DNA of 64,000 nucleotides, from the NCBI GenBank assembly GCA_009781765.1, contig WQVC01000001.1, positions 14,774-78,773 on the forward strand, in the 5' to 3' direction. Below, piece after piece: positions 12,189 through 34,396 of the stretch. The notes beneath the pieces were generated by a model. The model was not told where the DNA came from, searched no databases, and was given only the letters and a program-made list of their open reading frames with translations. Origin of the DNA: Defluviitaleaceae bacterium. GTDB lineage: Bacteria; Bacillota; Clostridia; Lachnospirales; WQUN01. A program made the position numbers and the translations under genes. Positions within the stretch are counted from its first letter, which is position 1. Each line of letters opens with the position of its first letter.

Positions 12189-12689
12189 ATGTTGTTACAA
12201 GACGCTTGGAAACGCATTGCATTTGACACGCAAAATCAACCGGTGAAACACGTTTGGGACGAGTTTCACAACAAAGAAAAAGCCGCTTACGTCGGCATTT
12301 TAAAAGAAAAAAAGACGCGCATAGAAGGCACTGTTACGGAGCTTGCCGAGGGCTTCCGCATGACAAACGTGCAGGTATGCGCGTTTTTGGATGGAATTCA
12401 CGAGTGCGTTGACGGTCTGCCGGAAATCGGCACAATCGAGGACAGCACCGCGATTGCCTTCGACATCGAATTTGACCGGCTTTACAAGCAAATGGTCGAA
12501 TACAAAGCCGATAATTTGTACAACTTGCCGGAATGGGACAATGTTTTCCCGCCCGAAAAGCAAAAAGAGCTTTATCGCGAACAAAAAAGTTCGCACACTG
12601 TTGTTCGCAACGAAGCAAAAATCGGTCGCAACGAACCCTGCACTTGCGGAAGCGGAAAGAAGCATAAAAAATGCTGCGGAGCGGCATAG
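12189..12689 (+). CDS. SEC-C metal-binding motif protein
   Basis: C-terminal [23 protein letters not shown] upstream of the ATG at 12189. Confidence 0.7.
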
Positions 12690-13783
12690 ATTCCGCCGGA
12701 GATTTTATTCGCAACGGCGGACTTGTTGTGTTTCCGACGGAAACGGTTTACGGACTCGGCGCGGACGCTTTTAATCCTGACGCTGTTGCGAAAATTTACG
12801 CCGCGAAGGGTCGCCCCGGCGACAACCCGCTTATTTTGCATATCGCAAATGCGGGCGATTTTTCGCGCCTTGCGCACGAACCGCCGGATTACGCCTTTGC
12901 ACTTATCGAAAATTTTTGGCCGGGGCCGCTCACGCTTGTTGTGCGCAAAAATCCGACATTGCCGGCATGGCTCGGCGGGCATCCGAGCGGCACGACCGAA
13001 ACCGTCGGTATACGAATGCCGGCGCATCCCGTTGCGAGGGCGTTAATCGAAGCGTCGGGTTGTGCGATTGCCGCGCCGAGCGCAAACAAAGCCGGCAAAC
13101 CGAGCCCGACGAGCCTCGCGCACGTACTCGAAGATTATAATGAAGCCGAACGCAACGGCATTTTTTTTCTTGATGACTCCGAGCGAAACGACGAATTTAT
13201 CGGGCTTGAATCGACAGTCATTGATGCTACGGGCGACAAGCCCGTTATTTTGCGTCACGGCGGCATTACGGCAGAAGAAATTCTATCGGTAACCAACCGG
13301 CTGCCAACAGAAACAGCGAACGCTTCCCGTTGCGCAATAGCAACAGTGAGCGAAGCGAACGCTTCCCGTTGCGCAACAGAATTTGAACCGGCGCGAAAAT
13401 CCCCGGAAAATCCCCGTTCCCCCGGAATGAAATACAAACACTACGCACCGCGCGCGGAAATGACGATACTTTCGGGTCGGCCGGAAAAAATCGCGGAGTA
13501 TATCTCAAACGTCGGGGCGGGAAAAATCGGCGCGTTGGTAAGCGCGGAAACAGCGACGCATCTCCCCTGCCCTGCTCCGCCGAATTTGAAAATTCTCCCG
13601 CTCGGCGACGACGCGAGCGGCGATAAAAAAATCATAGCGCGAAACCTTTTCGCTAATTTGCGAAAATTTGACAGCCTCGGTGTTGATATAATTTTCGCCG
13701 AAGCCGTTTGCGAAAGCGGAATCGGCGCGGCAATAACGGACAGAATGCGCAAAGCCGCAGAGGGGCGCGCAGTAAGCGTCTGA
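12671..13783 (+). CDS. tsaC: L-threonylcarbamoyladenylate synthase (Sua5/YwlC type)
   Basis: YrdC-domain motif [40 protein letters not shown], and a C-terminal Sua5 domain. Confidence 0.88.
13283..13377. repeat. family B element, copy B1 (in frame inside tsaC, partly duplicated)
   Basis: CTATCGGTAACCAACCGGCTGCCAACAGAAACAG..CGAACGCTTCCCGTTGCGCAA occurs twice. It is the reverse complement of 29490-29559. Confidence 0.85.
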
Positions 13784-20377: not shown

Positions 20378-20630
20378 GGGGGGCGTCGCCCCCTCTCACG
20401 CGCTGCGCGCGTTGGCCGGGCGGCCTCGCTGACGCGACCCGACTTCGCCGGGGGACAGCCCAAGCCCCCACCCGCTTTTTAAAGGGTGGCGCGGGAAACG
20501 TTCGCTTCGCTCACTGCGCCCTCTAAAAGCGGGGCAAAAATTATTAAAAAATCGCGCAAAGCGCGATTTTAATAAAGTTTTTGTCGAACTTTTTTCAAAA
20601 AGTTCGTGGGGTGCGGGGCGAAGCCCTGCG
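20378..20630. repeat. composite palindromic element A3 (family A modules plus family B core)
   Basis: GGGGGGCGTCGCCCCC, ACGCGCTGCGCGCGT, GGGAAACGTTCGCTTCGCTCACTG (B core), AATCGCGCAAAGCGCGATT, CGAACTTTTTTCAAAAAGTTCG. Confidence 0.85.
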
Positions 20631-28622: not shown

Positions 28623-29411
28623 TTACGTACTCGGTACGTAGTTGTCGTCCTCGTTGATACGGGCGGTAGCCTGCGGAGCGTATGTCGTCTTGTCGGAATG
28701 CTTGTTGAGGCTGGGGCTGGACATCGGGCCGAGGCTCAAGGGCTGCGGAACTGCTCCTTTGGGCGGCGGCATATACGACATCGGCGGCGGAGCGTGAGCC
28801 GCAAGCGGGGGCGCGGGCTGCTTGGGACGCGGCGAAACAGAGGGCGGCGGCAAGGCGGGGGCAACCGGAGCCGCTTCCGGAATGACGTCGTAATGCGACG
28901 CTTCATAATATGATGCGTCGGAATACACCGGCTCAGTATTTGCGCTTGCGTCGGGGGTTTCGTCGGGTTCGGGGGTTGCGGCGTCGTCGGCCGCGCCGGC
29001 CGGAACAATATCCATATCCTTGAGGCGCAAGATGAATTTATCTACATCGTCGAGCCTGTGATGCAATTCGTTTACATCGTTGCTGTCGAGTTCGGTTAAG
29101 TATTTGCGTACCATTCCCGCATAAACATCCTGAAATGCCTTGATTTTCATGCGTTGACGGTCTACTTCACCGGTAAGTTTATCCAACTCTTTGGCTATTT
29201 GCCCCTTATATTCTTCGGCTTGTGCGCGGGCGTTTTTAATCATGTTATCCGCCGCGATTTGCGCCGAAATAATCGCATTTTTAATGGCGTTATCCTTCTC
29301 TTTGTAGCTTCTTACAACTTGCTCTAATGTAGCGATATATCTGTCGACCTCTTCCGGGTCGTAGCCGCGTTTTACGTAGGTGAACTGTTCCACTGCGAAT
29401 GCTCCTTCCAT
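28623..29411 (-). CDS. DivIVA domain protein with Pro-rich C-terminus
   Basis: N-terminal FTYVKRGYDPEEVDRYI DivIVA motif, a coiled-coil region, and a P-rich tail. Confidence 0.8.
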   Translation of the reverse strand: MEGAFAVEQFTYVKRGYDPEEVDRYIATLEQVVRSYKEKDNAIKNAIISAQIAADNMIKNARAQAEEYKGQIAKELDKLTGEVDRQRMKIKAFQDVYAGMVRKYLTELDSNDVNELHHRLDDVDKFILRLKDMDIVPAGAADDAATPEPDETPDASANTEPVYSDASYYEASHYDVIPEAAPVAPALPPPSVSPRPKQPAPPLAAHAPPPMSYMPPPKGAVPQPLSLGPMSSPSLNKHSDKTTYAPQATARINEDDNYVPST

Positions 29412-29489
29412 CTAAAGGGAAATTTTCAAAAATGATAACACACCGGGCAAGCACACGCAAGGCACGACGGCAAGTCGAAAAAAAACCTG

Positions 29490-29559
29490 TTGCGTTACAT
29501 AACGGGAAGCGTTCGCTTCGCTCACTGTTTCTGTTGGCAGCCGGTTGGTTACCGATAGG
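29490..29559. repeat. family B element, copy B3 (intergenic)
   Basis: AACGGGAAGCGTTCGCTTCGCTCACTGTTTCTGTTGGCAGCCGGTTGGTTACCGATAGG. Confidence 0.85.
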
Positions 29560-29691
29560 TTTTTCGCGCGACAAATTTTTCGCACATTTTGCAGGAAGCC
29601 ACACAAAATGCGTCAAATGTTCAACACGAATACAAAAAAATTTCGCCGTATGACAATTGCTTCCGAATATAAATACACAACCTCGCCGCAT

Positions 29692-29831: not shown

Positions 29832-32066
29832 ATGCTCATCGACAATCTGTTTTGGGTCGGCTTTTTGGGTGCGGCGGCAGGTATCGGTTTCGCCGTGTTC
29901 CAAATTTTAAAGGTGTTTAAGTACCCCGAGGGCAACCCGCGAATGATTGAAATCGCCCAAGCTATTCGCGACGGCGCAAACGCTTTTATGAAGCGGCAGT
30001 ACCTTACCGTTACGATTTTTTTGGCGGTAATGTTTGTAATTTTGGCTGCTCTTGCGTACATCCCGCCGCTTTTCGACGCATCCCCGCTGATTAACCAGTA
30101 CACGCCCTTTGCGTTCCTTACGGGCGGCGGCTTAACCGCACTTTGCGGCTTTATCGGCATGAAAATTTCTACAAACGCAAACGCTCGCACTGCGCAAGCC
30201 GCAAGCGAAAGCCTTAACAAAGCGTTGCGCGTTTCCTTCTCGTCCGGCTCGGTTATGGGCTTTGTTGTAAACGGGCTTGCAATCCTTGAAATCACGGTTT
30301 GGTACATGCTTCTCACGATGGTTTTCCAAGAGCCGCCCGATGTTGTTTCCGAAACAATGCTTACCTTCGGAATGGGCGTTGCGGTTGTTGCTGTTTTCGC
30401 CCGCGTGGGCGGCGGTATTTTCACAAAAGCCGCCGACGTAGGCGCAGACTTGGTTGGTAAAGTTGAAGCCGGCATCCCCGAAGATGACCCGCGTAACCCC
30501 GCCGTTATCGCCGACAATGTTGGCGACAACGTGGGCGACGTTGCGGGCATGGGCGCAGACCTGCACGAATCCAACTCAAACGCACTTGTTGCCTGTATCG
30601 CGCTCAGTTTTGCCGCTCAGTACAATATCGGCGGATTTATTCTTCCTATTATAATTTCGGTAATCGGCGTTCTTTGCTCGATTGTGGGAACGTTCTTCGT
30701 TCGCGCAAAAGAGAACACGAGCCAAAAAGCACTTCTCAAAACCCTGCATCGCGGCGTTTATATTGCCGGTGCGCTTGCGGCACTTTTAACGCTTCCCCTG
30801 ATTCACTTTATCGCACATCACAACCTCGAAGGTGCGCTTGATGCTTATGCTCGCGGCGCGGTCGGCGCAGCAGAATGGGTTGCCGGCGCGGAGTCCATGG
30901 TTAATAACGCATGGGGAATGTTCGCGGCGGTTCTCATCGGTATCGTGGCAGGGTTTATCGTGAGCTACTTCACCGAACACTATACCTCCGACGCAAGCAA
31001 GCCCACCCGCGAACTTGCCGAATCCAGTAAATCAGGCTCTGCTCCGCTTGTTATCGGCGGGCTTGCCTTGGGAATGCGCTCTGTTGCCGGCCCGCTTATT
31101 ACAATCGGCGCGGCGGCTATCGGCAGCTTCATCGTTTCCGGCGGACTTGCGTTTATTCAAGCCGGCAGCCCTGCCGACGCACTCGACCTTAACTTCAGCG
31201 CGGGGCTTTACGGCATTGCTCTCGCCGCGGTTTCCATGCTTGCAACAAACGCAATAATTCTCGCAACCGACGCATTCGGCCCCGTTGCGGATAACGCCGG
31301 CGGAATTGCGGAAATGGCGGGTCTTCCCCCCGAAGTTCGTCAACGCACCGACGCCCTCGACGCGCTCGGAAACACAACCGCCGCAACCGGCAAAGGCTTT
31401 GCAATCGCATCCAACTCCTTCACTGGTCTTGCGCTTCTCGTTTCGTATGTAACCCTCGCGGAACGCGCGCTTCCCTACGGCGAATCACTTAACCTCGCAA
31501 TCGTAAACCCGCCCGTTTTGGTCGGATTCTTCTCAGGCGTAGCCGTTGTATTCCTCTTCGCGGCGATGTGTATGTCAGCCGTTCAACGTGCGGCGCAAAG
31601 CATTGTACACGAAGTACGCCGCCAGTTCCGCGAAATTGTCGGGCTTAAAGAAGGTAAACCCGGCGCGAAAGCCGACTACGCAACCTGCGTTGACATTTGC
31701 ACCCGCGGTGCACTCAAAGAAATGATACCTCCCGCGCTTTTGACAATTGCCGGTCCGATTATTGTGGGCATTTTGCTCGGTGCGCCCGGAGTTGTCGGTT
31801 ATCTTGCGGGAATAATCGGCTCAGGCTTTGCAATGGCCGTGTTTATGCTCAATTCGGGCGGCGCATGGGATAACGCCAAAAAATTCATCGAAGCCGGAAA
31901 CCTCGACGGCAAAGGCAGCGATAACCACAAAGCCGCCGTTATCGGCGACACCGTCGGCGACCCCCTCAAAGACACCGCCGGTCCTTCGTTCAACAACGTA
32001 ATAACTGTATCCTGCGCCGTTGCAATCGTGTTTATCGGCGTAACCAATGCATTTGCTCTGTTATAA
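29832..32066 (+). CDS. hppA: membrane-bound ion-translocating pyrophosphatase
   Basis: 744 aa, polytopic. It has GGGIFTKAADVGADLVGKVE, DNVGDNVGD and GNTTAATGKGFAI motifs. Ala rather than Lys in GNTTAA suggests the K+-dependent type. Confidence 0.93.
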   Translation: MLIDNLFWVGFLGAAAGIGFAVFQILKVFKYPEGNPRMIEIAQAIRDGANAFMKRQYLTVTIFLAVMFVILAALAYIPPLFDASPLINQYTPFAFLTGGGLTALCGFIGMKISTNANARTAQAASESLNKALRVSFSSGSVMGFVVNGLAILEITVWYMLLTMVFQEPPDVVSETMLTFGMGVAVVAVFARVGGGIFTKAADVGADLVGKVEAGIPEDDPRNPAVIADNVGDNVGDVAGMGADLHESNSNALVACIALSFAAQYNIGGFILPIIISVIGVLCSIVGTFFVRAKENTSQKALLKTLHRGVYIAGALAALLTLPLIHFIAHHNLEGALDAYARGAVGAAEWVAGAESMVNNAWGMFAAVLIGIVAGFIVSYFTEHYTSDASKPTRELAESSKSGSAPLVIGGLALGMRSVAGPLITIGAAAIGSFIVSGGLAFIQAGSPADALDLNFSAGLYGIALAAVSMLATNAIILATDAFGPVADNAGGIAEMAGLPPEVRQRTDALDALGNTTAATGKGFAIASNSFTGLALLVSYVTLAERALPYGESLNLAIVNPPVLVGFFSGVAVVFLFAAMCMSAVQRAAQSIVHEVRRQFREIVGLKEGKPGAKADYATCVDICTRGALKEMIPPALLTIAGPIIVGILLGAPGVVGYLAGIIGSGFAMAVFMLNSGGAWDNAKKFIEAGNLDGKGSDNHKAAVIGDTVGDPLKDTAGPSFNNVITVSCAVAIVFIGVTNAFALL

Positions 32067-33005: not shown

Positions 33006-34396
33006 GTGCGGTAAACATCCCCGACTATGCGGCAAAAATTATCGCTGCCCTGACCGCCGCCGGACACGAGGCGTTTATCGTAGGCGGGTGTGTGCGCGAT
33101 ATGATTCGCGGCGCAACCCCCGGCGACTGGGACATTGCAACATCAGCCCGACCCGACGAGGTTAAGGGCTTGTTTTCGCGTACATTTGACACCGGAATCA
33201 AGCACGGCACAGTATCGGTGTTGTGCGGCTCGAACGTTTGCGAAGTTACAACGTATCGCATTGACGGCGAATATTCCGACAATCGGCGTCCGGCAACGGT
33301 GACTTTCGCCGGAAAAATCGAGGAAGATTTAAGCCGCCGCGACTTTACAATTAACGCAATCGCGTACAATCCGACGCGCGGATTTGTTGACCCCTTCGAC
33401 GGACGCGGCGATATTTCGCGGAAAATTATAAAATGCGTCGGCGACGCGGAAACACGCTTCGGTGAAGACGCGCTGCGAATGCTTCGGGCGATTCGATTCG
33501 CGGCGGTACTGGGGTTTTGCGTGAATTCCGACGCCGTGCGGGCAATTACGAAACTGCGCGACAATCTCGCCGATATAAGCGGGGAGCGTATTCGCGAGGA
33601 ACTGTGCAAGCTCCTTTGCGGCGCACACCCCGATGCGGCGAAATTATTGCGCGAAACCGGTATTATGCGCCAAGTTTTGCGCGGGCGCGATTTCGGCGGA
33701 AATTTGGATGAGGTAGTTTCGCGATTGCAGGTGCTTTCCGGGGGACTCTGTCCCCCGAACCCCCTGCAAGGGGGGATAACACCCCCCCTTGACCCCCGAA
33801 ATGAAAAACCGCGCGAAGCGCGGTTTTTCGAAGGGGCGCGAGAGGCTTTTCCGCAGCCCGGGAAGCGGTATACGGCTTCGAGAGAATGTGTCGCAAGCTG
33901 TACGTGCAGCCGTGCAGCGGGAAGCGTTCGCTTCGCTCACTGCTGCTATCGGTGTTCAGTCTCCCCCAAAGGGACGTTGTCAAAAGCACTTGCGTTATTT
34001 TTTGCGTGGGCGGACGATGAGTGCGAGTATGTTTTGCGCGACTTGCGGTTCGACAATAAAACGATTCGGACAGTTTCACGATTCGTGCAAAATCGCGCGC
34101 TTCCCGGGTCGCGATATGAAATAAAGAAGTTAATGCGAATTTTTCCCCCGGACGAATTTGAGGATTGGTTGCATTTGCAGGAAATTTCTCAAAAGCGTTG
34201 TTTTGAAAAAATTCGCGCGGAAGCGGCGGATATTTTGACGCGGGGCGAGTGTTTTACTTTGCGCGGGCTTGCCGTAAACGGCAACGACCTCGCCGAAGTC
34301 GGCATAACCGGCAAAGCGGCGGGCGAGGCATTGGAGAAATTTTTGGACGCGGTTATGCGCGACCCGCAAATGAACGTGAAGGAGCGGCTGTTATGA
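33002..34396 (+). CDS. cca: CCA-adding tRNA nucleotidyltransferase with ~80 aa repeat-derived insert
   Basis: GGCVRDMIRG, DWDIAT, RRDFTINAIAY, and EDALRMLRAIRF motifs. Confidence 0.88.
   Translation: MSAVNIPDYAAKIIAALTAAGHEAFIVGGCVRDMIRGATPGDWDIATSARPDEVKGLFSRTFDTGIKHGTVSVLCGSNVCEVTTYRIDGEYSDNRRPATVTFAGKIEEDLSRRDFTINAIAYNPTRGFVDPFDGRGDISRKIIKCVGDAETRFGEDALRMLRAIRFAAVLGFCVNSDAVRAITKLRDNLADISGERIREELCKLLCGAHPDAAKLLRETGIMRQVLRGRDFGGNLDEVVSRLQVLSGGLCPPNPLQGGITPPLDPRNEKPREARFFEGAREAFPQPGKRYTASRECVASCTCSRAAGSVRFAHCCYRCSVSPKGTLSKALALFFAWADDECEYVLRDLRFDNKTIRTVSRFVQNRALPGSRYEIKKLMRIFPPDEFEDWLHLQEISQKRCFEKIRAEAADILTRGECFTLRGLAVNGNDLAEVGITGKAAGEALEKFLDAVMRDPQMNVKERLL
33740..33976. repeat. composite element A7 (family A hairpins plus E motif plus B core) in frame inside cca
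   Basis: GGGGGACTCTGTCCCCC, GGGGGGATAACACCCCCC, AAAACCGCGCGAAGCGCGGTTTTT, CGGCTTCGAGAGAATGTG, GGGAAGCGTTCGCTTCGCTCACTG. Confidence 0.85.

Follow-up and report, generated by a model that had tools for sequence, protein, structure and literature searches.

In-frame palindromic repeats within genes have been described in Rickettsia as the Rickettsia palindromic elements (RPEs; Ogata et al. 2000/2002, summarised in PMC10969869), and MITEs are also known to form in-frame fusions (PMC10969869). The locus described here, found in a 64,000-nt window (the whole stretch of DNA that was analysed) from a member of the Defluviitaleaceae (Bacillota), provides a well-resolved case in the Bacillota of something known chiefly from Rickettsia. 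Its host gene is tsaC, which encodes a Sua5-type L-threonylcarbamoyladenylate synthase, an essential enzyme that supplies the precursor of the universal tRNA modification t6A. The linker between the two Sua5 domains acts as the lid of the active site, and in Pyrococcus abyssi Sua5 the PGM and HY motifs of this lid are indispensable (PMC6004061).

Results

The genome (G000) is a draft metagenome-assembled genome (MAG) from termite gut, 2.94 Mb in 154 contigs, and contains a single tsaC match, an ORF of 370 aa at 12671-13783 (+). The domain pair of Sua5/TsaC is complete, with the YrdC-like domain matching PF01300 (Sua5_yciO_yrdC) at aa 12-197 (E=1.8e-52) and the C-terminal domain matching PF03481 (Sua5_C) at aa 233-363 (E=8.5e-29), and the best solved-structure matches were the Sua5 structures 6f87 and 2eqa. 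In an alignment of 120 homologues, all 52 of the 52 invariant columns were kept by the query, including the KxR/SxN tetrad (K46/R48, S137/N139), P251, G252 and H257; Y258 falls in a nearly invariant column and M253 was read directly from PGMKYKHY. The conserved lid hairpin lies at approximately aa 246-260, with the insert upstream of it at the hinge; the element sits in the N-terminal, variable part of the Sua5 lid and not in a passive tether.

A sequence-only reading of this DNA had placed a partly duplicated repeat element at 13283-13377, in frame in the tsaC interdomain linker, and the sequence, the ORF and the Pfam domains agree with that placement: the stretch is translated in frame as aa 205-236, between the YrdC-like and Sua5_C domains. 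The partial duplication is equally clear, as there are two exact occurrences of the 21-mer CGAACGCTTCCCGTTGCGCAA, one at 13317-13337 and the other at 13356-13376, 39 nt (13 codons) apart. A third copy at 29495-29515 (-) carries 3 mismatches, where 0.01 such copies were expected in shuffles. With no more than 24 of its 39 nt repeated, the partial duplication was passed over by Tandem Repeats Finder, which gave instead an 11-nt x 2 exact repeat farther along the tsaC linker, immediately upstream of the conserved lid motif PRSPGMKY (Table 1). That 22-mer is unique in the genome, and a single 11-nt duplication there would by itself shift the frame.

Table 1. Repeat-derived and related features in the window
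Feature	Position	Strand	Description
Repeat-derived segment of tsaC	13283-13375	+	93 nt, 31 codons, L205-A235
M1 module	13283-13310	+	Left arm and loop CTATCGGTAACCAACCGG, then degenerate right arm CTGCCAACAG
First M2 unit, truncated	13317-13337	+	Without 5' TGAGCGAAG of the loop
Second M2 unit, complete hairpin	13340-13372	+	Zero-mismatch M2 at 13347-13368; stem covariation
11-nt x 2 exact tandem repeat GAAAATCCCCG	13395-13416	+	Tandem Repeats Finder
M2 core at tip of type-A intergenic hairpin	20492-20513	-	..AAAGGGTGGCG-M2-CGCCCTCT..
Sister composite, fuller form	29486-29565	-	34 nt + 29 nt identical to the tsaC copy
M2 core inside composite insert of cca	33918-33939	-	Translated on opposite strand

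Whole-genome BLAST and a fuzzy pattern search were used to define the repeat modules, and showed that two independent modules, M1 and M2, are joined in the element that had been called "family B". Dozens of copies of each were found, so those noticed in the window are not the only ones. The family label held for the modules, both of which are multi-copy, and failed for the composite, since the M1-M2 junction GGCTGCCAACAGAAACAG occurs at two genomic sites only, in tsaC and at 29486-29565, and the composite thus has only two copies.

M1 is present in 38 genomic copies at <=2 mismatches, and normally forms the left arm and loop of a hairpin, AAAAACCTATCGGTAACCAACCGGCTACCGATAGGTTTTT, flanked by an A-run and a T-run in the manner of a bidirectional terminator. 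The DNA of the tsaC copy matches the M1 consensus at 18/18 positions, and has neither the proper right arm of a normal M1 nor its flanking A-run and T-run.

M2, TGAGCGAAGCGAACGYTTCCCG, has 39-42 copies in its own genome, each at the tip of a hairpin, and was found on at least 4 different host hairpins. Its 23-nt loop, AGTGAGCGAAGCGAACGYTTCCC, is conserved, and the 5-bp closing stem varies with host context (GGCGC/GCGCC, GCAGC/GCTGC, GCAAC/GTTGC, GCGGC/GCCGC). When 36 distinct copies, drawn from G000 and from a sister MAG, were compared, 94.7% of stem cells were paired, against 33-54% when the partner was slid, and two positions split ~17:12 and 19:12 between compensatory pair types. Because the copies fall into few lineages, this covariation is support for the M2 hairpin and not proof of it. 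Within the inner helix, alignment columns 23/30 pair as G-T in 22 copies and as G-C in 12, so that the hairpin stays paired only on the TGAGCG... strand. This may point to a structure that forms on one strand, as RNA or as single-stranded DNA.

The first M2 unit in tsaC retains CGAACGCTTCCC and the 3' stem half GTTGC, followed by GCAA, and the second has the stem GCAAC (13340-13344)/GTTGC (13368-13372) around the conserved loop AGTGAGCGAAGCGAACGCTTCCC. The segment ends without terminal inverted repeats; CAACAG occurs three times within the element and could be the remnant of a target-site duplication. Stop codons are absent from four of the element's six reading frames and from five of M2's six, so the open frame in tsaC is unremarkable. 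The region around the element folded more stably than shuffles (z -3.4 to -3.95), and an Rfam scan of the 64-kb window at the gathering threshold returned two tRNAs only and no structured-RNA match to the element.

Both modules are mostly intergenic. With a crude home-made ORF-scoring gene finder that called 80% of the genome coding, 34/38 M1 copies and 34/42 M2 copies were intergenic, and 1/38 and 3/42, respectively, were deep-genic; this scarcity at a coding density of ~80% supports selection against genic insertion. The three genic M2 copies lie in tsaC, cca and a gene for an FGGY sugar kinase, are read in three different frames (VSEANASRC in tsaC), and all fall at Pfam domain boundaries, which in cca are split at aa 227 and 331. 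The sequence-only reading had also recognised the core of the element inside cca and in a composite repeat near 20490-20516, and an M2 was found at each place (Table 1). The FGGY-family sugar kinase (G000:C7:25546-27405, minus strand) carries a ~60-aa composite repeat after FGGY_C, made of M2 and two CATTCCCTCGAAGCC units.

By the same crude gene calls, 13/34 intergenic M1 copies lie between divergent genes and only 2 between convergent genes, and in tandem gene contexts 14/17 are co-oriented with the upstream gene. M2 copies showed no clear preference for either orientation towards their neighbouring genes (9:7). Repeats are abundant in this genome as a whole: 14-mers occurring at least 6 times cover ~230 kb. 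A strict genic test, which demanded coding signal over at least 60 codons on either side of the repeat and an intergenic position for at least 40% of its other copies, placed ~102 repeat regions of all families deep inside ~77 genes. The commonest genic resident is the CATTCCCTCGAAGCCGG family (14-mers with up to 171 copies). Separately, a predicted 574-aa gene (C9:40827-42548, minus strand) has, close to its 5' end, a tract of ~14 TTGCC pentanucleotides (G000:C9:42425-42493) that is possibly slippage-prone and phase-variable.

The reverse-complement copy that had been reported as intergenic near 29490-29559 proved to be the fuller of the two composites (Table 1). It lies between divergent genes at 28623-29411 (-) and 29832-32066 (+), 16 kb from the tsaC copy and in opposite orientation. 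Read in order, it has an A-run and the left arm and loop of M1, followed by CTGCCAACAG, AAACAG and an M2 whose stem is degenerate, and then GCAACAGG and a T-run; CAACAG flanks its M2 part, and a degenerate right-arm end (CAACAGG) is retained. A terminator scan of 29486-29565 gave no match, and the fold of this copy was no better than shuffles (z -0.5 to -0.9). This copy is a degraded M1 hairpin, and likely represents the donor type, resembling an M1 hairpin invaded by M2. The 3' parts of the two composites differ (TTGCG vs TTATGTAACG), so neither present-day copy is a simple copy of the other, and we infer the direction of transfer solely from which copy retains its M1 context.

Comparison with Sua5 orthologues showed that the linker of this TsaC is not common to them. 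In the two closest orthologues, from the sister genome G002 and the database entry P0002 (L046), the conserved GAGGAAATT (EEI) is followed by TTC GAR RTY GCG WCK WTT TTG CAA AAT, encoding FE[VI]A[ST][IF]LQN. In G000, EEI is followed by CTATCGG..., and the native FE[VI]A[ST][IF]LQN stretch is untraceable. DNA identity between G000 and G002 is 51/66 in the left flank and 32/36 in the right flank (77-89%), with no similarity in between. The right flank resumes as ACA GAA TTT GAA in G000 and ACT CAA TTT GAA in G002; since the last CAACAG of the element overlaps this native sequence (ACn-SAA), the right junction lies within 13374-13379. Microhomology at the right junction amounts to ~4-6 nt (ACAG/CAACAG), and none is clean at the left junction. 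Judged from these alignments, the event is best described as a replacement, with 31 repeat-derived codons where G002 has ~17 native ones, and not as a pure insertion. P0002 is also annotated with an N-terminal extension (L046:1501-1650) that bears a duplicated motif, RS.RAKRGL.SDDM, and may be repeat-derived or a mis-called start.

The M1-coded peptide SVTNRLPTE was considered as native sequence, because it resembles SVTKLNTE, LVTKLPTH and the consensus xVTGL of homologues. This was rejected because the closest orthologues have FE[VI]A[ST][IF]LQN at that place and the DNA is an 18/18 match to the M1 consensus. The likeness reflects either chance or selection for a helix-compatible insert.

The insert was absent from all 120 close TsaC homologues, and a collection of 5.8 billion proteins held no near-identical allele with or without it, the best non-self match being 67% identical. 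M1 was absent from 30/30 relatives examined, nine congeners among them. M2 is restricted to the genus, with 39 copies in its own genome, 55 in G002, 9 in G008, 4 in G003 and 3 in G006, and none in the relatives examined outside the genus; the congeners G001, G004, G005, G007 and G009 have no copy. Among 185,579 species genomes, exact M2 was found in two MAGs only, Defluviitaleaceae bacterium Nt197P1bin19 and a Clostridiales MAG. As the insert is species-specific, the event is younger than the split from the sister species.

Other repeats occupy the same linker in other species of the genus. The G002 tsaC linker contains a 23-nt perfect palindrome, GTCGGCGAGTG-T-CACTCGCCGAC (= GTCGGCGAGTGTCACTCGCCGAC), in frame as SVGECHSPT; the 2.2-Mb genome of G002 harbours ~330 copies of this palindrome, which is absent from G000, G003 and G005. 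The tsaC linker of another congener, G005 (L003, 1858-1974), contains 59 nt of the GGGGACTCCGTCCCC...CCCTTGACCC family, translated as KTLGTPSPTPPQGISSLDP, and this family is represented by at least 40 copies in G005 and by at least 40 in G000. Three unrelated repeats in three congeners within the same ~20 codons point to a permissive site and not to a sequence-specific function. Farther into the G002 gene (L002, 2362-2505; G002:C165:6284-6388), a ~100-nt hairpin MITE lies in frame in Sua5_C and adds ~40 aa (..LTNRNFFQKSSEVSVREQ..); elsewhere in G002 it recurs as eight near-full-length copies, which are 90-99% identical, and as a single 44-nt fragment.

M2 itself forms a tandem array of 5 x 39 nt in G002 (L036:1104-1298, WRGX01000211.1; 95% identity), in apparently non-coding DNA that is open in several frames. 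Since the 39-nt spacing in tsaC equals the period of this array, the additional, truncated M2 unit in tsaC probably reflects a tendency of M2 towards tandem amplification.

Alignment with P. abyssi Sua5 (6f87) covered aa 9-210 and 243-368, leaving ~23 extra residues in the TsaC described here. The stretch from LRxG to GMKYK spans 32-70 aa (median 38) in the 120 homologues and 63 in the query. An AlphaFold2 model built from the 120-sequence alignment had a mean pLDDT of 87.7, with both domains above 90 and residues 211-250 at 38-59, and the insert was modelled as a disordered loop. A confident helix at residues 201-208 takes in the first four element-coded residues (LSVT).

Discussion

The best explanation overall, and in our view a probable one, is that the Sua5 lid/linker received a copied fragment of a composite hairpin repeat whose normal place is between genes. 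The donor would have been of the type seen at 29486-29565, a terminator-like M1 hairpin already bearing an M2 hairpin, and the copied fragment would have overwritten the native codons in the variable N-terminal half of the lid/linker. A second, truncated M2 unit would stem from the tandem amplification of M2. Because the fragment is stop-free in the tsaC frame and its length is a multiple of three, it would simply be translated, with LSVT finishing the last helix of the YrdC-like domain and the remainder forming a disordered loop of ~25-30 residues. As the catalytic PGM/HY lid motif is untouched and the loop lies upstream of it, TsaC with the insert is most likely still active. We infer that the insert is a passenger, on the assumption that it is neutral; by analogy with the lid of P. 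abyssi Sua5, ~23 extra residues at the hinge could alter kinetics.

On how the fragment was copied, we lean modestly towards templated repair or template switching and away from a transposase. The ragged ends, the lost native codons, the truncated inner unit and the inverted, donor-like copy 16 kb away favour this mechanism. Weak microhomology and the differing 3' parts of the two composites weigh against it. In addition, a PF01797 search of G000 for a Y1/RAYT transposase gave no match, with controls matched in 6/14 genomes; at 94% genome completeness this absence is probable and not certain.

The main competitor is a MITE-type transposition of the M1-M2 composite, or of M2 alone, by a transposase acting in trans, with adjacent native codons deleted later. 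Such an event would fit families that are multi-copy with near-identical copies, the CAACAG that recurs in tsaC and flanks M2 at 29486-29565 like a target-site duplication, the placement of M2 at hairpin tips as if it inserted into loops, and the presence of a true MITE in the tsaC of G002. Yet terminal inverted repeats and the outer ends of M1 are both lacking from the tsaC copy, one of its M2 units is 5'-truncated, the composite exists only twice, and PF01797, the one transposase family searched, gave no match in the genome; the loss of native codons also argues against a simple insertion. We consider this origin improbable.

Adaptive co-option of the insert is less probable still. A longer tether might tune opening and closing of the lid, or an mRNA hairpin might slow ribosomes between the domains or regulate expression, and these ideas draw on the function of the linker as a lid (PMC6004061), the stable folding of the region relative to shuffles, the repeats in the same linker of three congeners, and the element-coded LSVT, which is close to the family consensus xVTGL and finishes helix 201-208 in the model. 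However, the repeats of the three congeners are unrelated, which favours tolerance over specific function, linker length in the family varies without pattern, and the insert is young, species-specific and predicted to be disordered; genic M2 copies are moreover read in three different frames. A chimeric assembly caused by a repeat, or mere chance similarity, might be suspected in a repeat-rich metagenome-assembled draft of 154 contigs, but can be dismissed almost completely, as both flanks are the same gene, in frame and with orthologous sequence on each side, the matches are exact over 34 nt and 29 nt, with 18/18 positions of the M1 consensus and 0.01 expected for the 3-mismatch 21-mer, and a de Bruijn path through tsaC would require the repeat k-mers in tsaC itself.

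Copying of a hairpin-repeat fragment into the lid hinge thus remains our preferred reading, and this case shows how much repeat-derived sequence the Sua5 lid hinge can absorb. Together with the tsaC genes of the sister species, it offers a natural series of linker variants for work on lid dynamics. A fragmentary, replacing copy is also a small hint that repeats of this sort can reach genes without any transposase. Extended to the whole genus, hairpin repeats might enter genes by templated repair or template switching from ectopic hairpins and not by transposition, with the Sua5 lid hinge as a recurrent landing pad and repeats as a main source of linker-length evolution; we regard this wider picture as speculative and rather doubtful. 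If it is true, templated repair would yield fragments and replacements in genes.

Comparison with known systems

Templated insertions and quasipalindrome template-switch mutations are established mutation classes. The tsaC event is like them in that a short segment identical to an inverted, ectopic hairpin-former replaces local sequence, with short homology at one junction; it is unlike them in that the donor is 16 kb off and the microhomology at the left junction is weak.

Like SPRITEs and Rho-independent-terminator-like repeats, M1 is a GC-rich hairpin between an A-run and a T-run, and it forms a family of 38 copies. Unlike SPRITEs and MITEs, the tsaC copy has no terminal inverted repeats, no clear target-site duplication and no A/T runs, and unlike terminators, M1 lies between divergent genes more often than expected, as judged from crude gene calls.

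M2 recalls REP/BIME elements in being an imperfect hairpin of ~33 nt with a conserved core and tens of copies per genome, mostly extragenic, in both orientations, and in clusters and tandem arrays. It differs from them in that the loop is conserved and the stem covaries, that no GTAG-type 5' motif is present, and that no RAYT (TnpA-REP)/PF01797 gene was found in the 94%-complete genome.

The closest analogue is the RPEs. Both systems consist of short, palindromic, multi-copy repeats that are mostly non-coding, and in both a minority of copies lies in frame in unrelated housekeeping genes and adds a peptide compatible with the fold. The inserts are lineage-specific in both. M1 and M2 are likewise palindromic families with many, mostly intergenic copies elsewhere; the tsaC segment is in frame in an otherwise intact gene and missing from its orthologues, and AlphaFold2 predicts it to be a disordered loop between two confident domains, a site where the fold would tolerate it. 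In contrast to RPEs, the host belongs to the Bacillota, the units are mosaic modules of 18-33 nt and not ~100-150 bp, and the tsaC copy is a fragment that replaces native codons. Each RPE family also keeps a conserved frame, whereas M2 is read in three. M1 and M2 are set apart from RPE-1 to RPE-10 by these frames and by their restriction to one species and one genus of Defluviitaleaceae. On this comparison, the tsaC case is one more instance of the known RPE-like in-frame repeats.
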